From NCBI GenBank assembly GCA_964618975.1, contig CAZUDI010000010.1, positions 4,378-68,377 on the forward strand: a stretch of DNA of 64,000 nt, read 5' to 3'. The notes below the pieces were generated by a model. That model saw only the letters and a list, made by a program, of their open reading frames with translations, made no database searches and was not told the origin of the DNA. A program made the position numbers and the translations under genes. This document shows positions 1,174-61,238 of the stretch, piece after piece. This DNA comes from an uncultured Bacteriovoracaceae bacterium. GTDB lineage: Bacteria; Desulfobacterota; Desulfomonilia; UBA1062. Position 1 is the first letter of the stretch. Every line of letters begins with the position of its first letter.

Positions 1174-1518
1174 TCTTCTCTCCTTCTCAGTGCCTTATCT
1201 TTTAATTATACATCCAGTCTACCTACTTAAGTCAAGCGGCGAATGTGAAGACAATTTTCACAATCATGGGCATCATCTCCGGGACTAACCTTGGAACCCT
1301 CTTGATGCCACAAGCAGCTCAAGAGGCGCCCCAGAGTGATTTCCTCTCAAGATCTTCTACTCTCGCCCCCCCGAGGAAGCACCTGGAGGTCCACGTGGGG
1401 TATGGCCTTGGATTGCGACTTTCCCTTTTGCCTTCGGGTGTCGAACATGCTAAAGAATTCAGAAATCATCGGGATAGTTCCGATAGGTGTGATAAACGAA
1501 GCGCCGGGAGGACATACC

Positions 1519-5253: not shown

Positions 5254-5257
5254 GAAC

Positions 5258-5299
5258 GGCCTCTGCGCTTGCCCCCCCGAGGGGGCAAGCGCAGAGGCC
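5258..5299 (+). terminator. GC-rich 19-bp perfect stem-loop 5 nt after the aminotransferase stop
   Basis: ggcctctgcgcttgcccccc-cga-gggggcaagcgcagaggcc. No U-tract follows, so it is either a terminator lacking a T-run or an mRNA-stabilising hairpin. Confidence 0.5.
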
Positions 5300-5350
5300 G
5301 CAGTCCTGCCTGGTGCTATTTCGGCCTTCGTCCACAGCCCGCCCTGATCC

Positions 5351-5450
5351 CCTCGACGCTGCAAGTAGTAAGGGCATTGGTCCCATAGCGAATCAGGGGT
5401 CTAAACCCCAGGGCAAGCCTAAGGATCCTGCTTTCCGCTGCAAGCAGCGG
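5351..5450 (+). repeat. composite copy of the dispersed intergenic repeat family (hairpin+Y modules, then X+hairpin modules)
   Basis: cctcgacgctgcaagtagtaagggcattggtcccatagcgaatc, then ccccagggcaagcctaaggatcctgctttccgctgcaagcagcgg. Matches the copies at 21731, 52232, 54468(rc) and 61032. Confidence 0.8.
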
Positions 5451-5708
5451 TAAATTTGCCCCTCAGGCAATCAAAGGCCGCCCCTCCACCATGGGGGAGA
5501 TTGCGAGTCCTGCGCGAAAATGCTCTCCATAGGATCAAGCAAGTCGCCCCCGGGACAAAGGGGGCCTTACGGCAGATCTGCAGAACATCGCCCAACTCAT
5601 CCCCTGAACCCAGGACCCATGGTCCAGAGATAAGGTGTCTTGAAGTATCGGGCGAATCTGCGACTTCTGGGGATGGTGATCCCCAGGGTTTAAGCTTCAG
5701 GAAAACTC

Positions 5709-8228: not shown

Positions 8229-8306
8229 CTCTTAAACATGTATCGACCATATTGCATATCACCTTAAATCCCTGTTGGCAATTCATTGATAGATCAAAGC
8301 ACCTTT

Positions 8307-8391
8307 GATCATGGGTATGAGTCTCTGGCAGCCCCGGCACCCTCCCCTCAAAAAGCCATAAGCAGCGGGGAATGCGGCCCTTAGCAATCGA
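8307..8391 (+). repeat. copy of the dispersed intergenic repeat family (X..Y modules)
   Basis: gatcatgggtatga...agcagcggggaatgcggcccttagcaatcga. Confidence 0.7.
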
Positions 8392-8419
8392 CTGTCCGCT
8401 TGTCGACGAGCGGACAGTC
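8390..8419. terminator. perfect inverted repeat abutting the repeat copy
   Basis: gactgtccgct-tgtcgacg-agcggacagtc. Confidence 0.45.
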
Positions 8420-19915: not shown

Positions 19916-21469
19916 TCAGCGTTCCAGGAGAGCTCCGAACAGATCCTTGTTAAAAAAGGGCTCGTCCTCAAGACTGGCCCGGGGTATTTTGCCGGCCCTG
20001 ACGGCGAACGCCAAGCTCTCCTCGAGAGGAAAATACTCGCCCTGCAGGGAGGTGGCCTGCCCTTTGATATAGTAAATCTTGCCGTCTCTGATATAGGTCT
20101 GCACGCGCTTGGTCCCGATGAGCATCTCCCAGATGAGGATCTGCCTCTCATCGGTCCGGGCGCCAACCATGCGCTGGGAGAACACCCCCACGAGGGAGCG
20201 GGCGAACATGGCCTTCAGGTAGTCGTCTGAGAGCGTGGAGAGATACTGCTCCAGGGCGCTGAACACATCCGTAGCCGTAATGCCGGCGATGACGAGGATG
20301 CCCTTCTGGGCGGCGATGATGGATGCCTCCACCATGGAGCGGTTCTTGAGATTGGAGAGCACGAGCACATCCGGATCGTGCCGAAAGACGTGTTCGAAAA
20401 GCTGGGCGGAGTCCTTGCTGGTGTCGCGTCCGATCTCGCGCTGGTTGACATTGGAACGCTTGTGGTAATGCAGATATTCGATGGGGTCTTCGAAGGTGAT
20501 GATGTTACAGGTCCGGCTGGCGTTGATATGATCGACGAGGGCGGCGAGGGTGGCATCCTTGCCGTGTCCTCCGGGGGAACTCACCAGGAGGACACCCTTG
20601 CGCTCCAGTAGTGCAAGCAACCCTTCGGGGAGACCGAGGGCGGCGCTGCTAGGTATATCCTCCACGATCTTGCGTGCGGCCACCGCAATCTCCCCGCCCC
20701 GGTGCATATAGACATTCATGCGGTAGCGTCCCGTGCCGGCCCGGTTATAGGTATATTCGACCTCCTTGTTCTCACGCAGTTCGGCCTGCTGTTCCTGCGG
20801 TAGGATCTCCCGGATCAGGGAATCCATGAGCTCGGGGGTCACCATAGGCATGTTGCTTCTTACCAGGGTTCGGCCGCGCCTTAAGGCCGGCGGGATCCCG
20901 ATGGTGATGTGCAGGTCAGAATATTCGGGTTGCTCCAGGAGCCGCAGGATGTTGTCCGGGCTCATGTCCTGCACGGTTATGGAAGGGGTGCTCCGGGGCA
21001 CGTCCTTCAACACGAGGTCCTCCCGGCCGCAGCCGGATCGTTCTAGGGCCTTCAGGATATCCCGGATCTGCACCTGAGAGGCAAGCACAGGGGACACCTC
21101 GCGGTTGATCAGAAACTTGACGTTCTCCACCGAGACGTAATTCAGCGGGTCGGCAAAGGCCACGGTGGCAAGGCGCTCCTTGACCGCCAGGGGCACGACC
21201 AGCATTTCGTGCATGCGATCCTGGGGCAGAAGCACCTGGGCATCCTTCCTGATAACCCCCTCTTCCATGTCCAGGGTAGGCACATTGATGAGATTCTTGA
21301 GGATGCCGAGCACCTGGTCCTCTCTGAGGTAGGCCAGATGGATCAGGGTTTCCCCGAGCTTGAGATTGTGCTGCTGGGAAACCTCCAGGGCATGACGCAG
21401 CCGGTGTTCATCGATCAGACCCAGCTCGACGAGGACATCCCCCATGCGCCGGTTGTTTCTCTCTCCCAT
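19916..21469 (-). CDS. MshEN (c-di-GMP-binding) N-domain fused to a PilT-like type-IV-pilus ATPase domain with degenerate catalytic motifs
   Basis: N-terminus carries two MshEN repeats (LGDVLVELGLIDEHRLRHALEVSQQ, LGETLIHLAYLREDQVLGILKNL). The Walker A is SPGGHGKDAT instead of GPTGSGKST. The Asp and His boxes are degenerate (DPDVLVLSNLKN, VIAGITATD). Confidence 0.85.
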   Translation of the reverse strand: MGERNNRRMGDVLVELGLIDEHRLRHALEVSQQHNLKLGETLIHLAYLREDQVLGILKNLINVPTLDMEEGVIRKDAQVLLPQDRMHEMLVVPLAVKERLATVAFADPLNYVSVENVKFLINREVSPVLASQVQIRDILKALERSGCGREDLVLKDVPRSTPSITVQDMSPDNILRLLEQPEYSDLHITIGIPPALRRGRTLVRSNMPMVTPELMDSLIREILPQEQQAELRENKEVEYTYNRAGTGRYRMNVYMHRGGEIAVAARKIVEDIPSSAALGLPEGLLALLERKGVLLVSSPGGHGKDATLAALVDHINASRTCNIITFEDPIEYLHYHKRSNVNQREIGRDTSKDSAQLFEHVFRHDPDVLVLSNLKNRSMVEASIIAAQKGILVIAGITATDVFSALEQYLSTLSDDYLKAMFARSLVGVFSQRMVGARTDERQILIWEMLIGTKRVQTYIRDGKIYYIKGQATSLQGEYFPLEESLAFAVRAGKIPRASLEDEPFFNKDLFGALLER

Positions 21470-21730
21470 GACCTACCCCCCGTATTCTTTATTGTCCCTA
21501 TTATCGGAAACAAGGGCCCTGGGCCTTAATGGATTCTCCCCCAAGATGGGGCCTCCCTGCTGCACAACCCTGGCAGGGGTCCTGTTGTATGCATATCGCC
21601 CGTGACCAACCCCGAGGCCCCCAGGGCCTTCATTCATATTTCCTGTGGCACTTGGTTGGCGTCAATGATATGAAAAGCTTGGGCATGAATGCTAGGGCAG
21701 GCCTCGGAATCCCTGCTCGTCACAGACGGA

Positions 21731-21832
21731 GGGGCACGCGGCCCTTAGCGGATCATGGGTATGAACCCCAGGAAAAACCTGCCCCCCCCTCGACGCTGCA
21801 AGAGGCAGGGAATGCGGCCCATAGCGATTAAA
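21731..21832 (+). repeat. full copy of the dispersed intergenic repeat family, ending 3 nt before the histidine kinase start codon
   Basis: ggggcacgcggcccttagcg-gatcatgggtatgaaccccagg-...-ctcgacgctgcaagaggcaggg-aatgcggcccatagcgattaa. Confidence 0.85.
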
Positions 21833-21835
21833 ACT

Positions 21836-22762
21836 ATGAAAAATACCAAGAGATGGCCATCCATCACCATCTTCGTGATCATGCAGGTCGCCTGGGTGTC
21901 CGTTGTGACGCTCTGGATCATCTGGTATATCAAATATTGGTATGTCAAATACCACTATGCCCTCATCGAACACATCGGGGCCTGGGACATTGTCGTCATC
22001 GTCGAGGTATCCATCCTGCTGCTGCTGATTCTCATCGGCATCGTGATCCTCTTCGTACTTTACCAGCGCCAGGTTACCCTCACCCGCACCCAGACGCACC
22101 TCATCTCCGCCATTACCCATGAATTCAAGACCCCCCTGGCCACGACCCAGCTCTACCTGGAGACCATGCTGAAGCGGGAGCTGCCCGAGGAAACCCGGCA
22201 ACAACTCCTCACCGGCCTGCTCTCGGAAAATCAGCGGCTTAAATCCCTGGTGGAAAACTATCTGGAAAGCGCGCGACTGAGTTACCGGAACCGCTCTCAG
22301 AATCTCTCCCCACAGGCTATCAGCGAGATCATCTCGCGCTTTCTCAAGCGCCATGAGACGCTCGTCGGCCCGGTCGAGGTCTCCCTCGAGATCGAGGAGG
22401 GCCTGCTGGTCAACGTCGATGAAGACGCCTTTGATCTCGTCCTTTCCAACCTCACCGAAAACGCCATCCACTATTCCTCCGGTAGGGCACGCATTGACAT
22501 CCGTGCCTGGTCGGAGGCCAAGAGGACCTACATCGATTTCTCCGACGCGGGCATCGGCATCCCCCGCGAGCGGCATAAGGATGTATTCAAGATGTTCCAG
22601 CGGCTCCCGGAGGGGATCGCCCTGTGGGGAACAGGCACCGGTATGGGGTTGTATGTGGTCAAGGAAATTATCAAGGCCCATGGGGGCAAGATCAGGGTCA
22701 GGCCATCCTCGTCTGAGAACGGAACCTCGTTCCTCATCCAACTGCCGAGGGCGACAGCATGA
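21836..22762 (+). CDS. sensor histidine kinase
   Basis: Start at ATG 21836 (MKNTKRW). The upstream part of the long ORF is repeat-encoded. Two transmembrane segments, H-box ITHEFKTPL, N/G1/G2 ATP-binding motifs. Confidence 0.85.
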   Translation: MKNTKRWPSITIFVIMQVAWVSVVTLWIIWYIKYWYVKYHYALIEHIGAWDIVVIVEVSILLLLILIGIVILFVLYQRQVTLTRTQTHLISAITHEFKTPLATTQLYLETMLKRELPEETRQQLLTGLLSENQRLKSLVENYLESARLSYRNRSQNLSPQAISEIISRFLKRHETLVGPVEVSLEIEEGLLVNVDEDAFDLVLSNLTENAIHYSSGRARIDIRAWSEAKRTYIDFSDAGIGIPRERHKDVFKMFQRLPEGIALWGTGTGMGLYVVKEIIKAHGGKIRVRPSSSENGTSFLIQLPRATA

Positions 22763-24351: not shown

Positions 24352-24391
24352 ATAGGTTATAGTTTAGCTTTAAGCTTAATAAGGAGATCCC

Positions 24392-27207: not shown

Positions 27208-27224
27208 GAGTTCCTCCTATTATA

Positions 27225-27248
27225 GTTTAAAGTTATACTTTATACTTC
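27225..27248 (-). promoter_or_regulatory. GTTTAAAG-N8-TATACTTC motif copy 1, overlapping the core promoter of the fadH-like gene
   Basis: gtttaaag-ttatactt-tatacttc. On the gene strand, CTTTAAAC directly abuts a TATAAT hexamer (revcomp of 27219-27224) and the AGGAGG RBS. Confidence 0.5.
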
Positions 27249-27292
27249 ATTATGCCTGCGGCCACACCCTGTCAAGTCCAAACCGTCAAAAG

Positions 27293-27316
27293 TTTAAAGT
27301 TAGACTTAATACTTTA
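27293..27316 (-). promoter_or_regulatory. GTTTAAAG-N8-AATACTTT motif copy 2, 68 bp further upstream in the same orientation
   Basis: gtttaaag-ttagactt-aatacttt. Confidence 0.45.
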
Positions 27317-27428
27317 TGTTTTGCTTGCATGCCACGCAAACTTGTGGCATTCTCATAAAATCATCATGCAAGGGACGCCATCACGGACCATACCGGTATG
27401 GCACTCTAATATCCTAAAGGAGCATGTC

Positions 27429-29575: not shown

Positions 29576-29602
29576 AATTCCTCCCTGACGTTGGATAGGT
29601 AA

Positions 29603-29626
29603 GTTTTAAGTTGTACTTCATGCTTC
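29603..29626 (-). promoter_or_regulatory. GTTTTAAG-N8-CATGCTTC motif copy 3, upstream of the second NMO gene
   Basis: gttttaag-ttgtactt-catgcttc, 28-51 bp upstream of the start codon. Confidence 0.45.
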
Positions 29627-29790
29627 ATAATATCCGCGCATGCGCTTGTCAAGGTGATTCCTTGTTGGGACAAGGCGGTGCCTATGTCAGGAAGGAGCAA
29701 GCGTCTGTCATGCGGGGACACGCCCGGTTGCGGATGGAAGTCACCCTGCCAGTCGGCCCTTTCATCACCCCGGCAGCCATGGTACTATAT

Positions 29791-29830
29791 TGATTATGGG
29801 TATGAACCTCAGGACAGACCCTGGAATCCC
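29791..29830 (+). repeat. partial copy (X module) of the dispersed repeat family
   Basis: tgattatgggtatgaacctcagg. Confidence 0.5.
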
Positions 29831-30191
29831 CACTACACTGCCAGCGGCGGCGTATTCGCCTCACAACGATTGAATCTTGAAGAGATGGGGTTAATTAAAG
29901 GAGGGAGGTGCATGGGATGCATGGGAATATCTTGACCCAGATCGACAACACCCTGGAAAGGGCCCTCAGACGGGTTTGCCTAATACCCCATGGACGACGA
30001 CGTTCCCTGTCCCCGGAACCCGGCCGCTGTGAAGTCGGGCCCCTCCTGCAGTCTGGCGCTACGCTGCCACGCGCGCGTCGGCCCAAACACACCGAGGACC
30101 TACCCTTTAGCGCACCCTATCTCGTCCGGCATACTGAACCGCACTCCCCAGTCTTCCACGGGCCCCTTATCACCTTGCCGCAGGAGGATCA

Positions 30192-42819: not shown

Positions 42820-43017
42820 GCTTATAGACGTGGCCCATCCAGGAAAACCGCACAAGGAGATGCAATATTTCCCGTTGATATTCTCCGGGTCTTTCCTGTA
42901 AGAGGGGTGCTTGGCGCAAGCATGACGGGGTACGCCCCATATCCCTTATGAAACCATACGTGGCGGGGAAGGCGCCCCATAGCGGATGCGTGAGTAATAT
43001 CGAGGTAACATGAGAGA

Positions 43018-45016: not shown

Positions 45017-45113
45017 CAATGGTATGAGGAAGCAGGGGCATGGCGCCCAGGGCACACCCTGGCCCCCCGTTGACGAGCAAGCGGTAAGGGAATGGACCCC
45101 TAGCGATTAAGGG
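45017..45113 (+). repeat. degenerate copy of the dispersed repeat family, ending 10 nt before the nnr start codon
   Basis: caatggtatgagga...cgttgacgagcaagcgg...gggaatggacccctagcgattaaggg. The Y module runs into the GGGAGG RBS of nnr. Confidence 0.6.
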
Positions 45114-46688: not shown

Positions 46689-47652
46689 ACCGCAAGACAT
46701 GGGGGCGCGTCAGCAGCGGGAGGCCTTGAGGTATGCCGCGCCAGTGTCCAGATGCCACTATTGCGCCTGTGCGGGGTCTGCACATGGAGACAATCCCGTG
46801 ATCAATCATGGGGATACCCCCCAGGGCAAGCCTTGGACCCTCTTGGTCACCGCAAGTGGTGGGGAATGCGACCCTCAAACGATTCAAGGCTTCGAGCGGG
46901 GACTGCACCTGCGGGAGGTACAGGTTTCCCCCTCGCGCGGCACGATCCTCTATGTGCATGGCCTGGGGGAATCGGGCCAGTGCTTCGAGCCCCTCATGCA
47001 GAACGCCAGACTGGCCCCCTGGTCGCACCTGGCACCCGACCTGCCCGGTTATGGTCAGAGCCCGGACTTGCCCGGGGGACTTGCGGGCCATGCGGATCAT
47101 CTCTCCGACTGTCTGCGTCGACACTCGGCCCCGCCAGTGGTGGTCCTTGGCCACTCCATGGGAGGGGTGGTGGGGCTCCTGCTCTGCGAACGCCACCCTG
47201 ATCAGGTGGCCGCCTTCGTCAATGTGGAGGGCAATCTCACGCCTTCCGATTGCACCTTCAGCGCCCGCATCGCGACCATGGGGGCAGAGGCCTTCATCGC
47301 GCACGGTTTTAACCGGTTACGGCAGGACCTTGAGCAGATGGCCGTTTTAGACCCTGTGCTGCAGGGCTATCACGCGCGCATGGGACAGTGCGATCCCCGG
47401 CGTCTTTATGCCGACAGCCTCGAGCTTGTCGAGTATTCAAAAGCGGGCAGACTCGCTGATCGCCTGGCCGCGCTGTGCGTTCCCACCCTATATATTTCCG
47501 GATACCCGCGGGGCATAGGTGAACCCACCCGCGAAATCCTCAGGGTCAGCGGCCTGGCCTGGCAGGAGCTTCCCGGCGCCGGGCACTGGGTCTTCCTCGA
47601 CCAGCCAAGACGCTTCATCGACGCGCTCAAGGGATTCCTGGTCCGTCTCTAG
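46654..47652 (+). CDS. alpha/beta hydrolase
   Basis: LYVHGLGESG ... GHSMGG nucleophile elbow. The N-terminal roughly 75 codons of the listed ORF overlap nnr by 35 nt and are encoded by a repeat copy at 46801-46889. The true start is probably downstream (a candidate TTG sits at 46843). Confidence 0.75.
   Translation: MISAMPSRRSFRPQDMGARQQREALRYAAPVSRCHYCACAGSAHGDNPVINHGDTPQGKPWTLLVTASGGECDPQTIQGFERGLHLREVQVSPSRGTILYVHGLGESGQCFEPLMQNARLAPWSHLAPDLPGYGQSPDLPGGLAGHADHLSDCLRRHSAPPVVVLGHSMGGVVGLLLCERHPDQVAAFVNVEGNLTPSDCTFSARIATMGAEAFIAHGFNRLRQDLEQMAVLDPVLQGYHARMGQCDPRRLYADSLELVEYSKAGRLADRLAALCVPTLYISGYPRGIGEPTREILRVSGLAWQELPGAGHWVFLDQPRRFIDALKGFLVRL
46801..46889 (+). repeat. full copy of the dispersed repeat family, lying at or in the 5' end of the hydrolase ORF
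   Basis: atcaatcatggggatacccccagggcaagccttggaccc-tcttggtcaccgcaagtggtgg-ggaatgcgaccctcaaacgattcaagg. Confidence 0.75.
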
Positions 47653-48067: not shown

Positions 48068-48246
48068 CTGCTCCTCCCCTGAAAGCATGCATCCCAAGGC
48101 AAACCCTGGCACCCACATGCGACCGCCCGCATTAAGGGCATGCTACCCTTAGCGATTGTTGAGCCGGTGGCAGTGGACTGGCACCGGGGACCTGCCCGGA
48201 TTCGCTGAGCCTCGAGGACGGCCTCGGACGAGCAGCCCTCGGAGCT

Positions 48247-50112: not shown

Positions 50113-50185
50113 CTTCTATGTCCCTCCCCTATCTTTGATCTTTTTGTCCTCAAACGTGCGGCCATCCATGCACCGCATCACTCCC

Positions 50186-50250
50186 AATCATGGGGGTGAC
50201 CCCCAGGGCAGGATTCCCTTGACGCCACAAACCTTAAGGGAATTAGCCAC
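50186..50250 (+). repeat. partial copy of the dispersed repeat family
   Basis: aatcatgggggtgacccccagggcaggattccc...cttaagggaattagcc. Confidence 0.55.
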
Positions 50251-50258
50251 ATAAGGCC

Positions 50259-50942
50259 CTATTCGTCCGGCCCCACCCACTCCCTGGGTGGCCCAATGAG
50301 CACGAAGGGGCCGGGATTGAGGGGACCACCTCCCAGGGACATGTAGCCCGCACAGATATAAAGTCGCTCGTTCACCCGGCGCACCTCATCGTGCATGGAA
50401 TGGACCACATCGTCGTTGTAGGGTCCGTAGTCCAGATGATATGCATCCCGGCCGTCCTTGCCGATCGTGGTGGGCCCGACCCAGTTGTTCATCCTGCGCC
50501 GACGCAGGGTCTGCGTTGTGCCGTCCGGCCTTCTGACGTTGAAGATGTTGTATCCCCAACCTCGGTTGCGGCCCTCAGGGTTGAAGGCCTTGCCCTCCCA
50601 GCTGGCCTTGAGAATCGGCCTGCCCGAGGGGAAGACATGGTGCGTAAAGAGGGCCGTGGGGCGACCCAGCAACCCGCCGCTCAGGACCCGGGCCTGATAC
50701 TCGCCCTTCATCTCCTGGAACTCGGGCACCTCGGCGGCATAGAACAACTGCATGGTGTCCCGGCGTGAGAGCCGTTCGACATCCTCCCAGGTTGCCTGCC
50801 TGGGATCCTTCCCCAGGATCTGTGCCATGGTCCGGCCGTCGGGCCTGCGGCTGCCCGCCTGCAGGATGTTGATCAGCAAACCTGTCAGATTGGAGAGCAG
50901 CACCCCTGCCGCGACGAAAATCACCTTGTGGAACACCTTCAT
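50259..50942 (-). CDS. hypothetical N-terminally anchored protein
   Basis: Start at ATG 50942 with an AAGGAGG RBS. N-terminal transmembrane or signal segment. In an operon arrangement with the SDR gene downstream of marR. Confidence 0.65.
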   Translation of the reverse strand: MKVFHKVIFVAAGVLLSNLTGLLINILQAGSRRPDGRTMAQILGKDPRQATWEDVERLSRRDTMQLFYAAEVPEFQEMKGEYQARVLSGGLLGRPTALFTHHVFPSGRPILKASWEGKAFNPEGRNRGWGYNIFNVRRPDGTTQTLRRRRMNNWVGPTTIGKDGRDAYHLDYGPYNDDVVHSMHDEVRRVNERLYICAGYMSLGGGPLNPGPFVLIGPPREWVGPDE

Positions 50943-51680: not shown

Positions 51681-52231
51681 GTTTAGACCTTAGCATTTTT
51701 ATTTGCATGCTGCAATCTTTTTCTTATGGCCTTCGATTGACAGGCATAGTCCGTCATGCCTGAGAGGCTGACCCATCCCGCCAAATCCGCTTCAATCATG
51801 GAAATGAACCCCGGGGCCTGGCAGGACTCCCTCAAGGATGCCCCGGGTGTTGCGCAAAGCGATTCCGGACGTCTGCAACAGGACTGGCCTGCCTGCCCAC
51901 GAATCCCTTGAAGGCCGCGGTTACATTGCCCGTGACGTTGTGTACCTCATCATGCACACCGGAAAGACCACCGGCGTCGATCAACCGGTGAGGCCCTGGA
52001 GTCTGAAACAACAGAGGCTTCGTTTGCGTTATGCAATCAATAATATCGGCTGTGTCCTTGACCGTAAATCATATCGATTGCATCACGGCCGTACCATCGA
52101 TATTATCAATGATATGACATGAAAGGCTTCTCCGTCATGGTATGCTCACAGGAGACCACCGCCCGGCGGTCTTTCCCGGGGCAAGCCCTGCAGCCTGTGC
52201 AAACTGCCAGCGGAGAGGGAGACATGTCTTT

Positions 52232-52312
52232 CAATCATGGGTATGAACCCCGGCAAGCCCAGGCATCCTCTTGTTAACGCTAACGGCGGGGACCTCGACC
52301 CATAGTGATAAA
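52232..52312 (+). repeat. full copy of the dispersed repeat family, ending 15 nt before the carboxylesterase start codon
   Basis: tcaatcatgggtatgaaccccggcaagcccaggcatcc-tcttgttaacgctaacggcgg-ggacctcgacccatagtgataaag. Confidence 0.8.
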
Positions 52313-52327
52313 GAAGGGGGTAAAAGC

Positions 52328-54467: not shown

Positions 54468-54556
54468 GAAGCTTAAGGACTATGGGTCTGATTCCCCGCT
54501 GCTTGCAGCGGAAAGCAGGGGCCTTAGGCTTGCCCTGGGGTTCATAACCATGATTG
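54468..54556 (-). repeat. full copy of the dispersed repeat family in inverted orientation
   Basis: The reverse complement reads atcatggttatgaaccccagggcaagcctaaggcccctgctttccgctgcaagcagcggggaatcagacccatagtcc. Confidence 0.85.
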
Positions 54557-54590
54557 GCCTGAGGGTCGCATTCCCCGCCGCTGGCGGTGC

Positions 54591-56729
54591 CTAAGTGGGG
54601 TCTTTCGCCTTACAGCCCCGCCCTTTGCCGGGCTGACCGGCGATGCGCATGCGGGCGTCCAGGGCCAGCACGCCCTGCCCGTTCACCATCACGCGCACCG
54701 GGTTGAGATCGAGCTCGCCTATCTGCGGAAAGGCCGCCAGCAGGTGCGAGACGCGCACCAGGAAATCGACGAAGACCGGCAGGTCGCTCTTGACCCCGCC
54801 GCGGGCACCGGTGAGCAGGGGGAAGCAGGCAAGCCCCATGAGGCGCTGCATGATCTCCTCGCGCGGGGCCGGGCACAGACAGCAGGCCACATCGCGGAAA
54901 ATCTCCACGTAGATGCCGCCCAGGCCGAAGTAGAGCACCGGTCCGAAAGAGGCATCCTGCGTACCGCCCACGAACATGTCCACCCCCGCTGGCGCCGTCG
55001 CCTGCAGGCGCACCCCGTCGAAGCGGGCCTGCGGCAGGCTGACTTCAAGGTTTTCCCGCAGGCGCGCGAAGGTGCGCCTTACCCCCTCCTCGTCGGCCAC
55101 CCCCAGGGCCACCCCGCCCACCTCGGTCTTGTGCAGGGCCGCAGGCGAGATCACCTTCATGACCACCGGGAAACCCAGTTCGCCGGCCGCCAGGACGGCC
55201 TCCTCCGGGGAGGTGGCCACCCGGGAGGCGGCCACCCGCATCCCGAAGGTCTCGCACAGCTCCAGGGCCTCTTCGCCGCAGTCACCGCCTGCGCCCTCCA
55301 GCCAGGCCCGGGCACGCGCCTGATCGATGCCGTCGGGTGGCCGGGGTGGCGCATAGGGGGTGCGGGTGTGGAAATGCATCTGCATGGCCATGGCGCGCAC
55401 GAGCTCCTCAGGGCTGTTGAAGATGGGGAAATTCACCGCCTTCTTGGTCTGCAAGGTCAGCTTGGAAGGGCCGAAGAGGCACACCCCCATAGGCTTGCCG
55501 GCCGAGAGGATCGCCCCCCAGGTCTCCTTGGACAGGTCGGTCAGGAACATGCGGTGAAAGACCGTGTCGCCGGGGGGCATGTGGGGATACTGGGTCACGA
55601 GCAACGCCCCGTCGATCTTCTCCGAATGCATCACCGAGTAGATGACATGCGCGGTGAGCTGCGGGTCGTAGATATCGCCCATGTCCAGCGGGTTCGAGAA
55701 GCGGATGACCCCGGCGTTGCCGTAGTTCCTAAGCCCCTCGTAGAAATCCCGGCCCGGATCGGCGAAGGCGAAGCCCGCCTTCTCGCACAGATCGGCCGTG
55801 ATCACCGAGAACCCTCCCGCCGGGCTCATGACCATGACCCGCCGGCCGCGCATGGGCGGCAGGCTGAAGGCCTTGGCCGCGGCGAAGAAGTCATGGTAGT
55901 TGTGGATGCGCAGGATGCCGGCACGCTCGAAGGCGGCATCGATGATCTCTTCGTCGTTGCTCAGAGCCGCGGTATGGCTCATGGCCGCCTTCGCTCCGGC
56001 CGGGGTGGAGTTGGCCTTGTAGACCACGATGGGCTTGTCGATGTGGGATGCCGCCTCGATCAGCGCCTGGCCGCGTTCGATGCTCTCCACATACAGGCAG
56101 ATGACCCGGGTCTCGGGGTCCCGGCCATAGTATTCCAGGAAGTCCACCTCGTCCAGATCGAGCTTGTTGCCGATGCTGGCGAACTTGGCGATCCCGATGT
56201 TTTCGTCCACGAGGTAGTTGAAGATCATGATCGAGACGCCCCCGCTCTGCGAGATGATGGACATGCCGCCCTTGGGCGCCCGGCACAGGGGGATGAAGGG
56301 CAGGCACAGCCCGCTGGAGGTGTCCGCCACGGTCAGCCCGTTGGGCCCCACGATGCGCACCCCGAAGGCACGGGCCTGCTCCAGGGTGAGCGCGGCCAGC
56401 TGCTTGCCTTCCGCGCTGAACTCGGAAAACCCGCCCGAGGGCACGGCCATGTGCCGGATGCCGAAGCGCCCGCAGCGTTCCACCATCTCGGGCACGTGCC
56501 GCGCCGGGACCAGGCAGAAGGCCAGATCGGGCACCACGGGCAGGTCCTCGATATCCCGGTACATGCGGATACCGTCCACCTGCTCCTCCGTCCCCTTAGG
56601 GTTGACCCCGAAAATGCGCCCGCGATACCCCCAGCGCAGGGTGTTTTCGAGCGTGATGCGGGGGATGTTGTTCGGCTTGGACGACAGACCGATGATCGCA
56701 AGTGATGCGGGCGCAAACAGTTTCTCCAT
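54591..56729 (-). CDS. acetate/acyl-CoA ligase (ADP-forming) family protein (CoA-binding + ligase-CoA + ATP-grasp)
   Basis: Start at ATG 56729 with an AAGGAGG RBS (MEKLFAPASLAIIGLS CoA-binding N-terminus). C-terminal ATP-grasp domain. 712 aa. Confidence 0.9.
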   Translation of the reverse strand: MEKLFAPASLAIIGLSSKPNNIPRITLENTLRWGYRGRIFGVNPKGTEEQVDGIRMYRDIEDLPVVPDLAFCLVPARHVPEMVERCGRFGIRHMAVPSGGFSEFSAEGKQLAALTLEQARAFGVRIVGPNGLTVADTSSGLCLPFIPLCRAPKGGMSIISQSGGVSIMIFNYLVDENIGIAKFASIGNKLDLDEVDFLEYYGRDPETRVICLYVESIERGQALIEAASHIDKPIVVYKANSTPAGAKAAMSHTAALSNDEEIIDAAFERAGILRIHNYHDFFAAAKAFSLPPMRGRRVMVMSPAGGFSVITADLCEKAGFAFADPGRDFYEGLRNYGNAGVIRFSNPLDMGDIYDPQLTAHVIYSVMHSEKIDGALLVTQYPHMPPGDTVFHRMFLTDLSKETWGAILSAGKPMGVCLFGPSKLTLQTKKAVNFPIFNSPEELVRAMAMQMHFHTRTPYAPPRPPDGIDQARARAWLEGAGGDCGEEALELCETFGMRVAASRVATSPEEAVLAAGELGFPVVMKVISPAALHKTEVGGVALGVADEEGVRRTFARLRENLEVSLPQARFDGVRLQATAPAGVDMFVGGTQDASFGPVLYFGLGGIYVEIFRDVACCLCPAPREEIMQRLMGLACFPLLTGARGGVKSDLPVFVDFLVRVSHLLAAFPQIGELDLNPVRVMVNGQGVLALDARMRIAGQPGKGRGCKAKDPT

Positions 56730-56951
56730 GATCTCCCTCCTTGATGAGAACCTCCATCCCTGACGCCAGGCGCAGGTATCGAAGCCGACCTCCGTGGGGG
56801 GTGGGCATTTCCGCCCCCCACACAGGTATGCCCGGCCTCCCTTTCGAGCCTCCTTACCGCAGACGCATGCCGCCCATGGATATGCGGCGTCCATATCAAT
56901 GGCCCGGCGTCACCACCTTTTGACGCCGGGCCGACCCCCTTTTTGCTCTCT

Positions 56952-58859: not shown

Positions 58860-60266
58860 TTATATTGCCGCAACAGCCACAGGCTGATCTGCATCCTGGC
58901 AGACCCCCAGCTTCTTCGTGAGTGCTCGTGAATATTCATGGGAGACGACCAGGGCCCGCACCGCCTCCTCCGGTGAGAGGAAGACCGGGATCTGGTGCGT
59001 ACTGCGGATATCGAGGATCTTCTCCACCGTGTTGGGGATGTAGATGGCAGCAGGCTTGCCGAATTCACGGCACATGGCCACCAGCTCCCGCGTGGCATCG
59101 ATGATGAAATCCTGCCAGACATTCGGGATGGGCAGCAGCCCGTCCACGCTGTCCGACGAGAGCAGGATCTCGTAGATATCGAGGAAGGTCTGGATGTTCA
59201 GGGCCGGCCCGAGGTCGATGGGGTTGGCGGCGTTGTAGAGCTGCCCGACCTTGCGCAGCCGTGACTGGACATCCTCGCTCAGACGGGCCATCTCGAGCCC
59301 CCCAGACACGAGCAGGTCCGCCGTGATGCCACCCAAGGCCCCGGTATTCGAAATCACGGCGATGCGCCGACCCTTGAGGGGCGGCATGGTGGTGAAGATC
59401 TTGGGCAGGCTGAAGAGTTCGCTGATGGCCTGCACGCGGATCAGCCCTCCCTGGCGACAGGCGTTCTCGAAGACCACGTCGTTGTTGGCCATGCCGGCGG
59501 TATGGCTCAGGGCGGCCCGGGCGCCGGCCTCGGTCCGGCCCACCTTGTAGACCAGGATGGGCTTTCTCACGCGGCGGGCGGTCTGAAGCAGCTTGGTGCC
59601 CTGACGCACGTTCTCCAGGTACATGCCGATGACCTCGGTATTATCGGAGGCGAAATAGGCCAGCAGGTCGGCCTCGTCGATATCCGCCTTGTTGCCGATG
59701 GAGACCAGCTTGTTGATCTTGGCCACATCCCGTTCCATGGATTCGAGAATCAGCGCCCCCACCCCCCCGCTCTGGACGATGTACGAGCAGGTTCCCGGGT
59801 GGGCAAAGACGTCGCCGTACTTCTCAGGCGCCCCGCCGAAGAGGCAGCAGAAGCGGCTGTGCGCATCCAGCAGGCCCAGGCAGTTGGGGCCGATGAAGCG
59901 CATGCCGAAATGCCCTGCTATCTCATCCACCTCGGCCTGTAACCGACGCCCCTCCGGTCCCTCCTCGGCGAATCCCGCCGACTGGATGATGAAGCGGCGG
60001 ATTCCCTTGACGCCGCAGGCGCGCACCGTCTCGGGGACCAGACGTGCCTGGATGATGATCACCGCCAGATCCGGGCATTCCGGCAGGGCCTCCACCGCGC
60101 TGAATCCGGGATAGTCGTGCGACGGCTCTCCCCGGGGGTTGACCACGCAAACCTTCCCGGCATAGTCGATATGACGCAGCAGCTTGCAGATCGTGGAGCC
60201 GAGGTTGAAGGGGCTGTTCGAGGCGCCCACGATCACCACCGACCGCGGATTGAAAAACTTATCCAT
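58860..60266 (-). CDS. CoA-binding domain protein (alpha-subunit-like part of an ADP-forming acyl-CoA synthetase, lacking ATP-grasp)
   Basis: Start at ATG 60266 with an AGGAGG RBS (MDKFFNPRSVVIVGASNSP). Succinyl-CoA-synthetase-like CoA-binding and ligase-CoA domains. Confidence 0.85.
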   Translation of the reverse strand: MDKFFNPRSVVIVGASNSPFNLGSTICKLLRHIDYAGKVCVVNPRGEPSHDYPGFSAVEALPECPDLAVIIIQARLVPETVRACGVKGIRRFIIQSAGFAEEGPEGRRLQAEVDEIAGHFGMRFIGPNCLGLLDAHSRFCCLFGGAPEKYGDVFAHPGTCSYIVQSGGVGALILESMERDVAKINKLVSIGNKADIDEADLLAYFASDNTEVIGMYLENVRQGTKLLQTARRVRKPILVYKVGRTEAGARAALSHTAGMANNDVVFENACRQGGLIRVQAISELFSLPKIFTTMPPLKGRRIAVISNTGALGGITADLLVSGGLEMARLSEDVQSRLRKVGQLYNAANPIDLGPALNIQTFLDIYEILLSSDSVDGLLPIPNVWQDFIIDATRELVAMCREFGKPAAIYIPNTVEKILDIRSTHQIPVFLSPEEAVRALVVSHEYSRALTKKLGVCQDADQPVAVAAI

Positions 60267-60309
60267 CAAGGCCTCCTGGTTGCATACGCATGTCTTGAGC
60301 CCACGGCCC

Positions 60310-60843
60310 TTATATGTCACCCGCTGGGGGGGAAAGGGATCTCCGGCGGAGTTCCTCCGCATATTTCGCCTTGAGCCCCTCGAGCATGTCGATGATGGTC
60401 AGCAGCACGAAGCGCCCGTTCTCGTCGGCCACCTCGCAGGTCTCAATCTCCATCTGCCGCAGGTCCTCGAGCTGTTCGTCCAGGGCGGAGATCTCGGAGA
60501 CGAACTGCTCGAGGATCTGTCCCCCCTCGAGGAAACGGAAGAAGAAGGCCCGCGTAAGGAAGTCGATCTGATAGTCCACCGGCGTGGGCGCGGCGGTGAG
60601 CTTCTTGTAGAAGAGCTCCCGGCCCTGGGTCGTGACCGTATAGACGTGCTTGTTGGGCTTGCCGGTCTGAATGACTACCTCCTTGCGCACCAGGTCGGAC
60701 TCCTCGAGTTTGCGCAGGGCGGGATAGATCTGATTGAGACTGAGGTTATAGGAAACCATCATCTTGCCCGAGATACGCTTGATCTTGTAGCCGGTCTTGG
60801 GTCCGGACATGAGGAAGCCCAGGATCATCAGTCCTGTATCCAT
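60310..60843 (-). CDS. PadR-family transcriptional regulator
   Basis: PadR winged helix (ILGFLMSGPKTGYKIKRISGKMMVSYNLSLNQIYPALRKLEESDLV). Confidence 0.85.
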   Translation of the reverse strand: MDTGLMILGFLMSGPKTGYKIKRISGKMMVSYNLSLNQIYPALRKLEESDLVRKEVVIQTGKPNKHVYTVTTQGRELFYKKLTAAPTPVDYQIDFLTRAFFFRFLEGGQILEQFVSEISALDEQLEDLRQMEIETCEVADENGRFVLLTIIDMLEGLKAKYAEELRRRSLSPPAGDI

Positions 60844-61031: not shown

Positions 61032-61116
61032 TAATCATGGGTATGAACCCCAGGGCAAGCCTAAGGACCCAGCTTTTTGCTGCAAGCAGCCAGGGAATTC
61101 GACCCATAGCGATTAA
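61032..61116 (+). repeat. full copy of the dispersed repeat family (closest to consensus)
   Basis: taatcatgggtatgaaccccagggcaagcctaaggacccagctttttgctgcaagcagccagggaattcgacccatagcgattaac. Confidence 0.85.
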
Positions 61117-61238
61117 CACGTTTAAAAAAAAGCCAACCAGTGGTATGTTTAAAACAATGTAGTGAGGTATGAATTGGGGATTGTTGGTGCCGTGGGGGGG
61201 AGAGCCATGCAGGTAAATCTCGGGGGTGATCGCACACC

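Follow-up and report, generated by a model that had tools for sequence, protein, structure and literature searches.

In a 64,000-nt segment of metagenome-assembled chromosome from an uncultured, sulfate-reducer-like bacterium of the Desulfomonilia (contig CAZUDI010000010.1, positions 4,378 to 68,377; hereafter the window), a dispersed repeat of about 85 nt abuts the start codon of a histidine kinase gene. Does such a repeat bring a promoter, a ribosome-binding site (RBS) or a structured leader to the gene it precedes, as a first-pass annotation of this DNA had supposed, or did it come to lie there in some other way? The analysis favoured the second answer. The repeat looks like decaying selfish DNA rather than a delivered promoter, RBS or regulatory RNA, and a probability of roughly 60 % was given to its being a lineage-specific, non-coding and non-autonomous interspersed repeat, similar to repetitive extragenic palindromic (REP) sequences and miniature inverted-repeat transposable elements (MITEs), that spread by strand-specific single-strand insertion at AT-rich targets.

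The repeat family, its orientation and its flanks

Copies of the repeat were located by repeat search, alignment and an nhmmer profile made from the copies themselves. Eleven full-length copies (E 1e-12 to 1e-24) and seven to eight partial or degenerate ones were identified (Table 1), with a single full copy on the minus strand. The repeat was present in 13 of the 31 intergenic regions of at least 40 nt (about 40 %) and made up 1257 of the 8417 intergenic nt of the window (about 15 %). The window matches ENA scaffolds of MUDA16-1 and an NCBI contig of 74,783 nt. The same copies were seen in four independent assemblies and are therefore not assembly artefacts. The consensus comprises a module X, AATCATGGGTATGAACCCCAGGGCAAGCCTnGGACCC (beginning AATCATGGGTATGAACCCCAGGGCAAGCC), a variable spacer and a module Y (ending GCTGCAAGCAGCGGGGAATGCGGCCCATAGCGATTAA); the sequence in front of the kinase gene, 21731-21838, is the 3' portion of a tandem pair. 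The termini carry short complementary sequences (AATCATGGG ... CCCAT-AGC-GATT) and the consensus contains four small hairpins (H1 to H4), of which H1 (GGGTATGAACCC) and H4 (GGGGAATGCGGCCC) are similar, in direct orientation, only 3-4 bp long and, across copies, 76-91 % paired. The identity of copies to the consensus was 67-87 %, and pairwise identity was 49-85 % with a median of 63 %, near the ~60 % calculated for copies that had each decayed independently after descent from a single master. Divergence from the one consensus is star-like.

Twelve of the 13 loci lie on the plus strand (P=0.0034). GC skew was negative in 31 of the 32 2-kb bins irrespective of gene orientation, and the minus strand is therefore the G-rich strand; by the usual rule, the G-rich strand is the lagging-strand template. 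The 3' flanks of the copies (ATTAA, ATTGA, ATTCA, ATAAA and similar) resemble one another, whereas the 5' flanks are mutually unrelated. In the minus-strand reading, a TNAAT-like pentamer stands in front of each copy (TTAAT in three cases, TCAAT, TGAAT, ACAAT, TTTAT and others), and no target-site duplication (TA, TTAA or others) was detected at any copy. Head-to-tail dimers were frequent: in five cases out of 11 an older copy lies in front of the intact one, and the junction always falls at the same point (...AGCG/AATCA). The degenerate copy is always the 5' one, with the intact copy beside ATTAA (23/67, 23/65, 16/73 and 11/63 bits in the four scored pairs; the fifth tandem locus has a remnant at 1225-1260). 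Such a polarity would be expected if the element had inserted again and again on the minus strand, each time 3' of a single fixed target. An alternative model of plus-strand insertion, with the target 5' of AATCA, was rejected, as the left flanks share nothing.

The nearest protein homologues of the window (53-64 % identity) carry the names Desulfomonilia, Syntrophales and Thermodesulfobacteriota. Three loci with kinase orthologues (60-63 % identity) in related metagenome-assembled genomes (MAGs) had no copy of the repeat, and loci with nnr orthologues (63-64 % identity) in related MAGs showed neither copies nor synteny; the insertion is therefore peculiar to this lineage. In one of these loci, L050, the dCache/ATP-synthase-c/kinase/response-regulator neighbourhood is retained and the kinase intergenic region measures 81 nt, versus 366 nt in the window. 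The comparison of orthologous loci that the first-pass annotation had proposed as a check thus points to an insertion at the kinase locus and not to an ancestral leader. A scan with the X pattern gave no multicopy match in 185,579 species genomes (GTDB), JGI metagenomes or IMG/VR; the 17 matches in each large collection agree with a rough chance estimate of about 17 made for the genome scan. No match to the element was found by blastn among plasmids and phages, and a protein database probed with a chimeric query of the open frames of the repeat returned the hydrolase discussed below as the sole hit. No paper was found on the repeat sequence or on REP elements in the Syntrophales.

Start codons and expression signals

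Copies of the repeat had been described as sitting immediately 5' of start codons, and this was borne out for three genes, a number greater than chance would allow. The coordinates and distances originally given proved correct. The Y module in front of the kinase gene ends with GATTAA (21827-21832), separated by ACT, the 3 nt originally noted, from ATG 21836. The copy upstream of nnr does run into the GGGAGG RBS as claimed, in the order GATTAA-GGGAGG-TGGCAC-ATG(45123), with its end 12 nt before the ATG, and the copy close to the carboxylesterase ATG 52328 ends 14 nt before it. As a general rule the description did not hold, the other copies being 30-121 nt away, antisense or in convergent regions. 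Three blocks lie at ≤15 nt, and five at ≤40 nt, upstream of a co-oriented start. When each block was placed at random within its own intergenic region in a Monte Carlo simulation, these counts had P=0.017 (≤15 nt) and P=0.0095 (≤40 nt) with orientation also random, and P=0.007 (≤15 nt) and P=0.002 (≤40 nt) with orientation kept, and the closeness to starts is therefore real. Ten of the 13 loci are in sense orientation (P=0.046). Three copies (8306, 48085 and 50185) are antisense to both neighbours, and a convergent pair of 3' ends flanks each of two further loci (5341-5475 and 54472-54598).

Within this 60 % G+C genome, AT content peaks in the 30 nt that precede start codons. Per kb, there were 66 pentamers made up only of A and T in these 30-nt stretches, 26 in the remaining intergenic DNA and 7 in coding sequence, so that a preference for AT-rich targets would account for the copies just upstream of starts. 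The bias towards start codons is best explained by target preference together with tolerance, and not by the delivery of signals.

The view that the copies contribute 5'-leader and RBS sequence was upheld in its first part only. In seven to eight loci the repeat fills the last 3-120 nt before a co-oriented start codon and therefore, unless a promoter lies inside it, makes up most of the 5' leader. However, four genes (nnr and those for the carboxylesterase, the aminotransferase and the MMPL transporter) have their Shine-Dalgarno sequences outside the repeat, downstream of its boundary. The sole RBS-like exception is AAGAGG-N6-ATG 21812 inside the kinase copy, a signal that is probably spurious. 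Nor did the proposal that the element delivers or overlays a promoter find support: none of the 25 sigma-70-like promoter matches in the window, and none of the 38 terminator-like matches, overlaps a copy.

A structured leader, which had also been suggested, was not supported either. Searches of Rfam 15 with the window, a consensus-like copy and the Bacteroidales loci described below, at the gathering score and at E≤10, returned nothing relevant. Fold z-scores were weak, near zero, on both strands, and the energies of single sequences were about equal to those of shuffles. Across 17 X modules no covariation was apparent, 77.0 % of cells being paired versus 76.4 % in column shuffles, with the observed value reached by 207 of 500 shuffles. 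Departures from Watson-Crick pairing in the stems were balanced between the G-U type (19) and the A-C type (20), which is the pattern of neutrally decaying double-stranded DNA rather than of selection on RNA from one strand. The copies show no per-copy selection for RNA structure, and the downstream genes have no common functional theme. Look-alikes of sigma-54 sites and of hammerhead, twister, pistol and c-di-GMP-I RNAs, checked by eye only, were rejected since their core motifs are missing and Rfam was negative. A coding role (micro-ORF MGMNPRAS...) was also rejected, as the frame is broken by indels between copies and the two overlaps with open reading frames (ORFs) are in different phases.

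Two gene starts are affected by the repeat. Eleven kinase orthologues (53-64 % identity) all begin with MKNP(K/R)RWP, aligned to ATG 21836, and the alignment thereby identifies this codon as the true start of the kinase. The public calls of ENA, NCBI and Logan begin the protein, of 316 residues, at ATG 21812 inside module Y. Because the orthologues all start at ATG 21836 and ATG 21812 sits in the repeat, the public call is, judged from these alignments, 8 codons too long, a start mis-annotation caused by the repeat.

The start of the alpha/beta hydrolase gene, said earlier to be made ambiguous by a full copy at its 5' end, is indeed so, with public calls at GTG 46798 or ATG 46699; the only open frame able to supply an N-terminus runs through the copy at 46803-46887. 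There is no canonical start in this frame between TTG 46843, in the repeat, and GTG 46954, in the catalytic domain. Alignments with family profiles and with 150 homologues begin only at residue about 25-35 of the annotated 284, and the first residues, about 27 in number and encoded by the repeat, have no counterpart in homologues. The N-termini of the homologues map to the 3' end of the repeat, where ATT 46882 is the only start-like codon, and with no canonical start at that place the repeat has probably displaced the native start. Translation either covers the repeat, adding about 27 N-terminal residues, or begins at a non-canonical codon.

Origin of the repeat

IS200/IS605 elements insert with their left end 3' of a tetra- or pentanucleotide that is specific to the element, carry subterminal hairpins that are recognized on a single strand and prefer the lagging-strand template (PMC5027513, PMC3333891). 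A single-strand insertion of this type, by an HUH Y1 transposase as in IS200/IS605 or REP-RAYT systems, would fit the repeat. The target would be an AT-rich ATTAA-like sequence (TNAAT on the minus strand) and the active strand would be the G-rich strand, the lagging-strand template. A preference for AT-rich targets, combined with purifying selection that removed insertions into promoters or coding sequence, would leave copies immediately 5' of starts. Copies in that position would be carried passively, as long 5' leaders, in the transcripts of several genes, and one may be translated as an N-terminal extension; they would not have been selected to deliver expression signals.

The repeat was also compared with known systems. 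IS200/IS605 elements and their non-autonomous derivatives (such as PATEs) appear to share with it small hairpins near both ends on the same strand, the absence of target duplication, a seemingly fixed short AT-rich flank at one end only, re-insertion at the same target giving head-to-tail copies, and a strong preference for one strand, in keeping with insertion directed to the lagging-strand template (PMC5027513). They differ in that the 85-nt repeat is far smaller than known derivatives, its hairpin-to-end spacings are unlike those of IS608, its termini are mutually complementary and TnpA and TnpB are not nearby; the target and cleavage sites of the repeat are putative. REP, BIME and REPIN sequences, mobilized by RAYT (TnpA-REP) Y1 transposases in E. 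coli and Pseudomonas, resemble the repeat in size (tens of nt to about 100 nt), great abundance, strictly intergenic position, small imperfect hairpins and clustered composite arrays, and in being non-coding, lineage-specific and, as is presumed for the repeat, co-transcribed with their neighbours. The density in the window (11 intact and ~8 partial copies in 64 kb) corresponds to the hundreds of copies of a REP family, the genome-wide number being an extrapolation. However, REP arrays alternate REP and inverted REP units whereas the repeat is arranged head-to-tail, and there is no sequence similarity. The REP hallmark is an imperfect palindrome of 20-40 nt with a conserved GTAG 5' of the hairpin foot (PMC3333891). 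A REP family also has a cognate single-copy RAYT (Y1 HUH) gene with repeats on its flanks, and no Y1_Tnp-like gene was present in the window.

Correia elements of Neisseria (CREE/NEMIS; 100-150 nt) are likewise intergenic, often just upstream of genes and apt to alter annotation; they are co-transcribed, as the repeat presumably is, and are known to alter expression. Their 26-bp terminal inverted repeats (TIRs), TA duplication, IHF site and demonstrable promoters were not seen in the repeat, where short terminal inverted repeats are present, duplication is absent and no copy holds a sigma-70-like site; a one-strand bias has not been reported for Correia elements. BOX elements of Streptococcus pneumoniae and MIRUs of Mycobacterium are also modular or tandem (BOX A-B(n)-C) and intergenic next to gene starts, and MIRUs, first observed in an operon for a two-component system, run in the same direction as the operons they sit in. 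There is, however, no sequence relationship, three copies of the repeat are antisense and, by our own reading, the small MIRU ORFs that overlap flanking stop and start codons are not reproduced, since the ATG frames of the repeat end at different places and in different phases. Rickettsia palindromic elements share the in-frame position inside a protein-coding ORF, annotated as protein, that is found for copy 46803-46887. That single case differs in lying at the extreme N-terminus, where it probably displaces the start codon instead of inserting an internal peptide, and again there is no sequence similarity. The repeat appears to be a new family of an ordinary REP/MITE-like kind.

Non-chance matches to module X were found at L003:4898-4938 and L008:2850-2887, both in Bacteroidales MAGs, the genomes with X being JBEKST01 and CAIYUC01, and at L036:984-1024 and L037:1750-1685 (minus strand), which are AT-rich metagenome contigs with Bacteroidales-type genes; L036 duplicates L003. 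The Bacteroidales sequence, AATCATGGGTAT(G/A)AACCCCAGGGCAAGCCC(A/T)GGA(C/T)CC, is about 90 % identical to X over 38 nt and occurs as single copies in AT-rich intergenic DNA. It is followed in L008 by a weak terminator-like hairpin and a T-run, and in L003 and L037 by a second X-like hairpin module. Two of the three copies are antisense to flanking genes, and GC skew at these loci was uninformative. Conservation of X across phyla could hint at a constrained function, a recognition module or a shared mobile source. On a bolder interpretation, which is tentative and rather unlikely, the repeat would belong to a cross-phylum class of ~85-nt elements mobilized as single-stranded DNA, with X maintained by an HUH-type enzyme or an RNA- or DNA-binding factor, that target the AT-rich translation-initiation region and rebuild 5' leaders and sometimes N-termini; or X would be an undescribed conserved RNA module that has been amplified here.

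Several explanations other than single-strand insertion were weighed. A classical cut-and-paste MITE, moved by a DDE transposase acting in trans on short TIRs in the manner of Correia or ERIC elements, with orientation irrelevant, would be in keeping with the size of ~85 nt, the intergenic high-copy habit and the complementarity of AATC-ATGGG and CCCAT-(AGC)-GATT, which is present in most copies and closes most minimum-free-energy folds. It is nevertheless improbable, as a symmetric TIR mechanism predicts neither the bias of 12 loci in 13 to one strand nor head-to-tail dimers with a fixed junction and a constant polarity of old and new copies; target-site duplications are absent at every copy and no matching insertion-sequence ends emerged from the plasmid, phage and genome scans. 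A functional role in cis as a structured 5' leader (riboregulator or protein-binding RNA), or as a module resembling a small RNA and recruited in front of many genes, is hardly better placed; the element would act on translation initiation, since it ends at the RBS or start. The significant closeness to co-oriented starts, the presence in all five divergent regions of a copy beside a co-oriented gene, the ~90 % conservation of X in Bacteroidales MAGs, with the hairpin and T-run of L008 as in a small RNA, the CAAG loop common to H2 and H3 and the similar loops of H1 and H4 on one strand would all suit it. It sits poorly with the Rfam, covariation, stem-substitution and folding results given above, with the three copies antisense to both neighbours and the two in convergent regions, with the antisense position of most Bacteroidales copies, and with downstream genes that lack a functional theme behind copies so far decayed.

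Delivery of an outward-facing promoter or RBS to downstream genes is very improbable. TTGAC(G) occurs in the spacer of some copies, AAGAGG-N6-ATG(21812) was accepted as a start by gene callers and ATG 21836 of the kinase lacks its own Shine-Dalgarno sequence. However, TTGAC is not conserved and has no -10 partner at 16-18 nt, none of the sigma-70-like hexamer pairs falls on a copy, four downstream genes have their RBSs outside the repeat, the orthologues place the kinase start at 21836 and not at 21812, and the element-free orthologue L048 also lacks a Shine-Dalgarno sequence. Equally remote are clustered binding sites of a nucleoid-associated protein or global regulator, kept for chromosome organization. 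These would accord with the high copy density and strictly intergenic position, with a one-strand bias that recalls architecture-imparting sequences and with a 5' end, AATCAT, that by our reading partly resembles an IHF half-site. Against them stand neutral decay with no invariant block beyond the G and C runs of the hairpins, an 85-nt unit with tandem partial copies that is atypical for a protein operator, and relatives that do without the repeat.

Some observations also weigh against single-strand insertion at AT-rich targets. The GTAG of REP sequences is absent: the hairpins are of the form GGG-N6-8-CCC, and 5' of the foot stand AATCAT or GCAGCG (plus strand) and CGCTAT or CCCTG (minus strand), so that CTAT or CCTG stands in place of GTAG. 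The terminal complementarity, 77-87 % paired across copies, fits a classical TIR-type MITE, and the conserved ATTAA could be the last bases of the element rather than its target. The 13 loci come from one 64-kb stretch, where strand bias is inseparable from the partial co-orientation with genes (10 of 13 sense) and where there is no replichore switch to serve as a control. In all five divergent intergenic regions the copy is found beside the co-oriented gene, an arrangement that a replication bias alone does not predict. The mobilizing enzyme is purely inferred, because no transposase of any kind was detected by Pfam among the window proteins and the window was all of the genome that was covered. 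Finally, X in the Bacteroidales, at about 90 %, is more conserved than the copies of the window are among themselves, or than would be expected of a decaying selfish repeat.

Coordinates, neighbouring features and significance

Table 1. Copies of the repeat in the window, with the histidine kinase gene
Position	Strand	Feature	Evidence
about 1225-1260	+	Degenerate Y remnant beside copy 1261	
1261-1342	+	Full copy, divergent zapA/GAF-protein intergenic region, 60 nt ahead of GAF start 1402	nhmmer
5341-5475	+	Partial copy (5341-5389) and intact copy (5390-5475), convergent region, 3' of strong hairpin trailing aminotransferase gene	
8306-8392	+	Full copy, antisense to both flanking minus-strand genes	
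21676-21750	+	Degenerate full-length tandem copy directly 5' of intact copy; junction ...CCCTTAGCG/GATCATGGG	nhmmer 23 bits
21751-21832	+	Intact copy, X about 21751-21788, Y about 21795-21832	nhmmer 67 bits; contains ATG 21812
21836-22762	+	Histidine kinase gene, true start by alignment ATG 21836	conserved MKNP(K/R)RWP N-terminus
29791-29874	+	Full copy, divergent region, about 35 nt 5' of AAAGGAGGGAGG RBS/start region about 29908-29913	
42927-42987	+	Partial copy, mainly Y, 30 nt 5' of aminotransferase ATG 43018	
45030-45111	+	Full copy, GATTAA end abutting GGGAGG RBS of nnr (ATG 45123)	
46803-46887	+	Full copy in frame, 5' end of alpha/beta-hydrolase ORF; encodes residues about 3-30 of annotated 284	
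48085-48158	+	Degenerate copy, antisense, between two minus-strand genes	
50185-50259	+	Full copy, antisense, between two minus-strand genes; 3' end touches stop codon of gene 50259-50942	
51793-51865	+	Degenerate copy, 647-nt MarR/carboxylesterase divergent intergenic region	
52171-52313	+	Degenerate copy (52171-52231) and intact copy (52232-52313), 14 nt ahead of carboxylesterase ATG 52328	
54472-54598	-	Sole minus-strand locus: intact copy (54472-54556) and partial copy (54559-54598), convergent, right after stop of gene 54591-56894	
61032-61117	+	Full copy nearest consensus, 121 nt 5' of MMPL transporter ATG 61239	nhmmer 80 bits

The genes near the copies are ordinary housekeeping genes, including those for Rnf, flagellar proteins, nnr, transketolase and two-component systems. 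No tRNA or tmRNA was found in the window by a tRNA/tmRNA scan. Downstream of the copy at 29791, at 29899-29934, the strong RBS AAAGGAGGGAGG is followed by a 7-codon ORF (ATG GGA TGC ATG GGA ATA TCT TGA), which is overlapped by an ORF of 96 residues that has no family match and lies upstream of a glucokinase gene.

The hairpin trailing the aminotransferase gene (5257-5298, right after the stop codon) is very strong and G+C-rich, GGCCTCTGCGCTTGCCCCC-CCGA-GGGGGCAAGCGCAGAGGCC, and has no T-run; a sequence related to its arm recurs at 1341-1381. A second and unrelated repeat of 27 nt, AGTTTAAAGTTATACTTTATACTTCAT, with AAGT-N3-ACTT half-sites, occurs at 24354-24380, 27224-27250, 27291-27317 and 29602-29628. 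One copy directly follows a near-consensus promoter that precedes a MerR-family gene (24392) and the remaining copies lie in the promoter regions of nitronate-monooxygenase-like and old-yellow-enzyme-like genes, an arrangement that probably marks the operator set of a small MerR regulon. Direct repeats at 55931-56193 and 59459-59718 (72-73 % identity) represent paralogous CoA-ligase/ATP-grasp genes (54591-56894 and 58860-60362) that flank an acyl-CoA dehydrogenase gene. Compared with window positions 55533-55550, the ENA scaffold L001 contains an N-gap and about 90 nt of foreign sequence (20428-20517), which splits the acetyl-CoA-synthetase-like gene 54591-56894 into two gene calls; this is a scaffolding artefact that is absent from the window.

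As a fact about the genome the repeat is of modest interest, being one more lineage-specific REP/MITE-like family, in an uncultured Desulfomonilia/Syntrophia-like bacterium; the near-identity of X in the Bacteroidales is the one feature that could raise its importance. In practice, a repeat that settles on translation-initiation regions and carries in-frame ATGs corrupts automatic start-codon calls, as exemplified by the kinase and the hydrolase. If the proposed mechanism is true, the repeat would be a compact natural substrate for a Y1-type transposase, and insertion at AT-rich sites before starts would explain why such repeats often seem to deliver 5'-leader signals.

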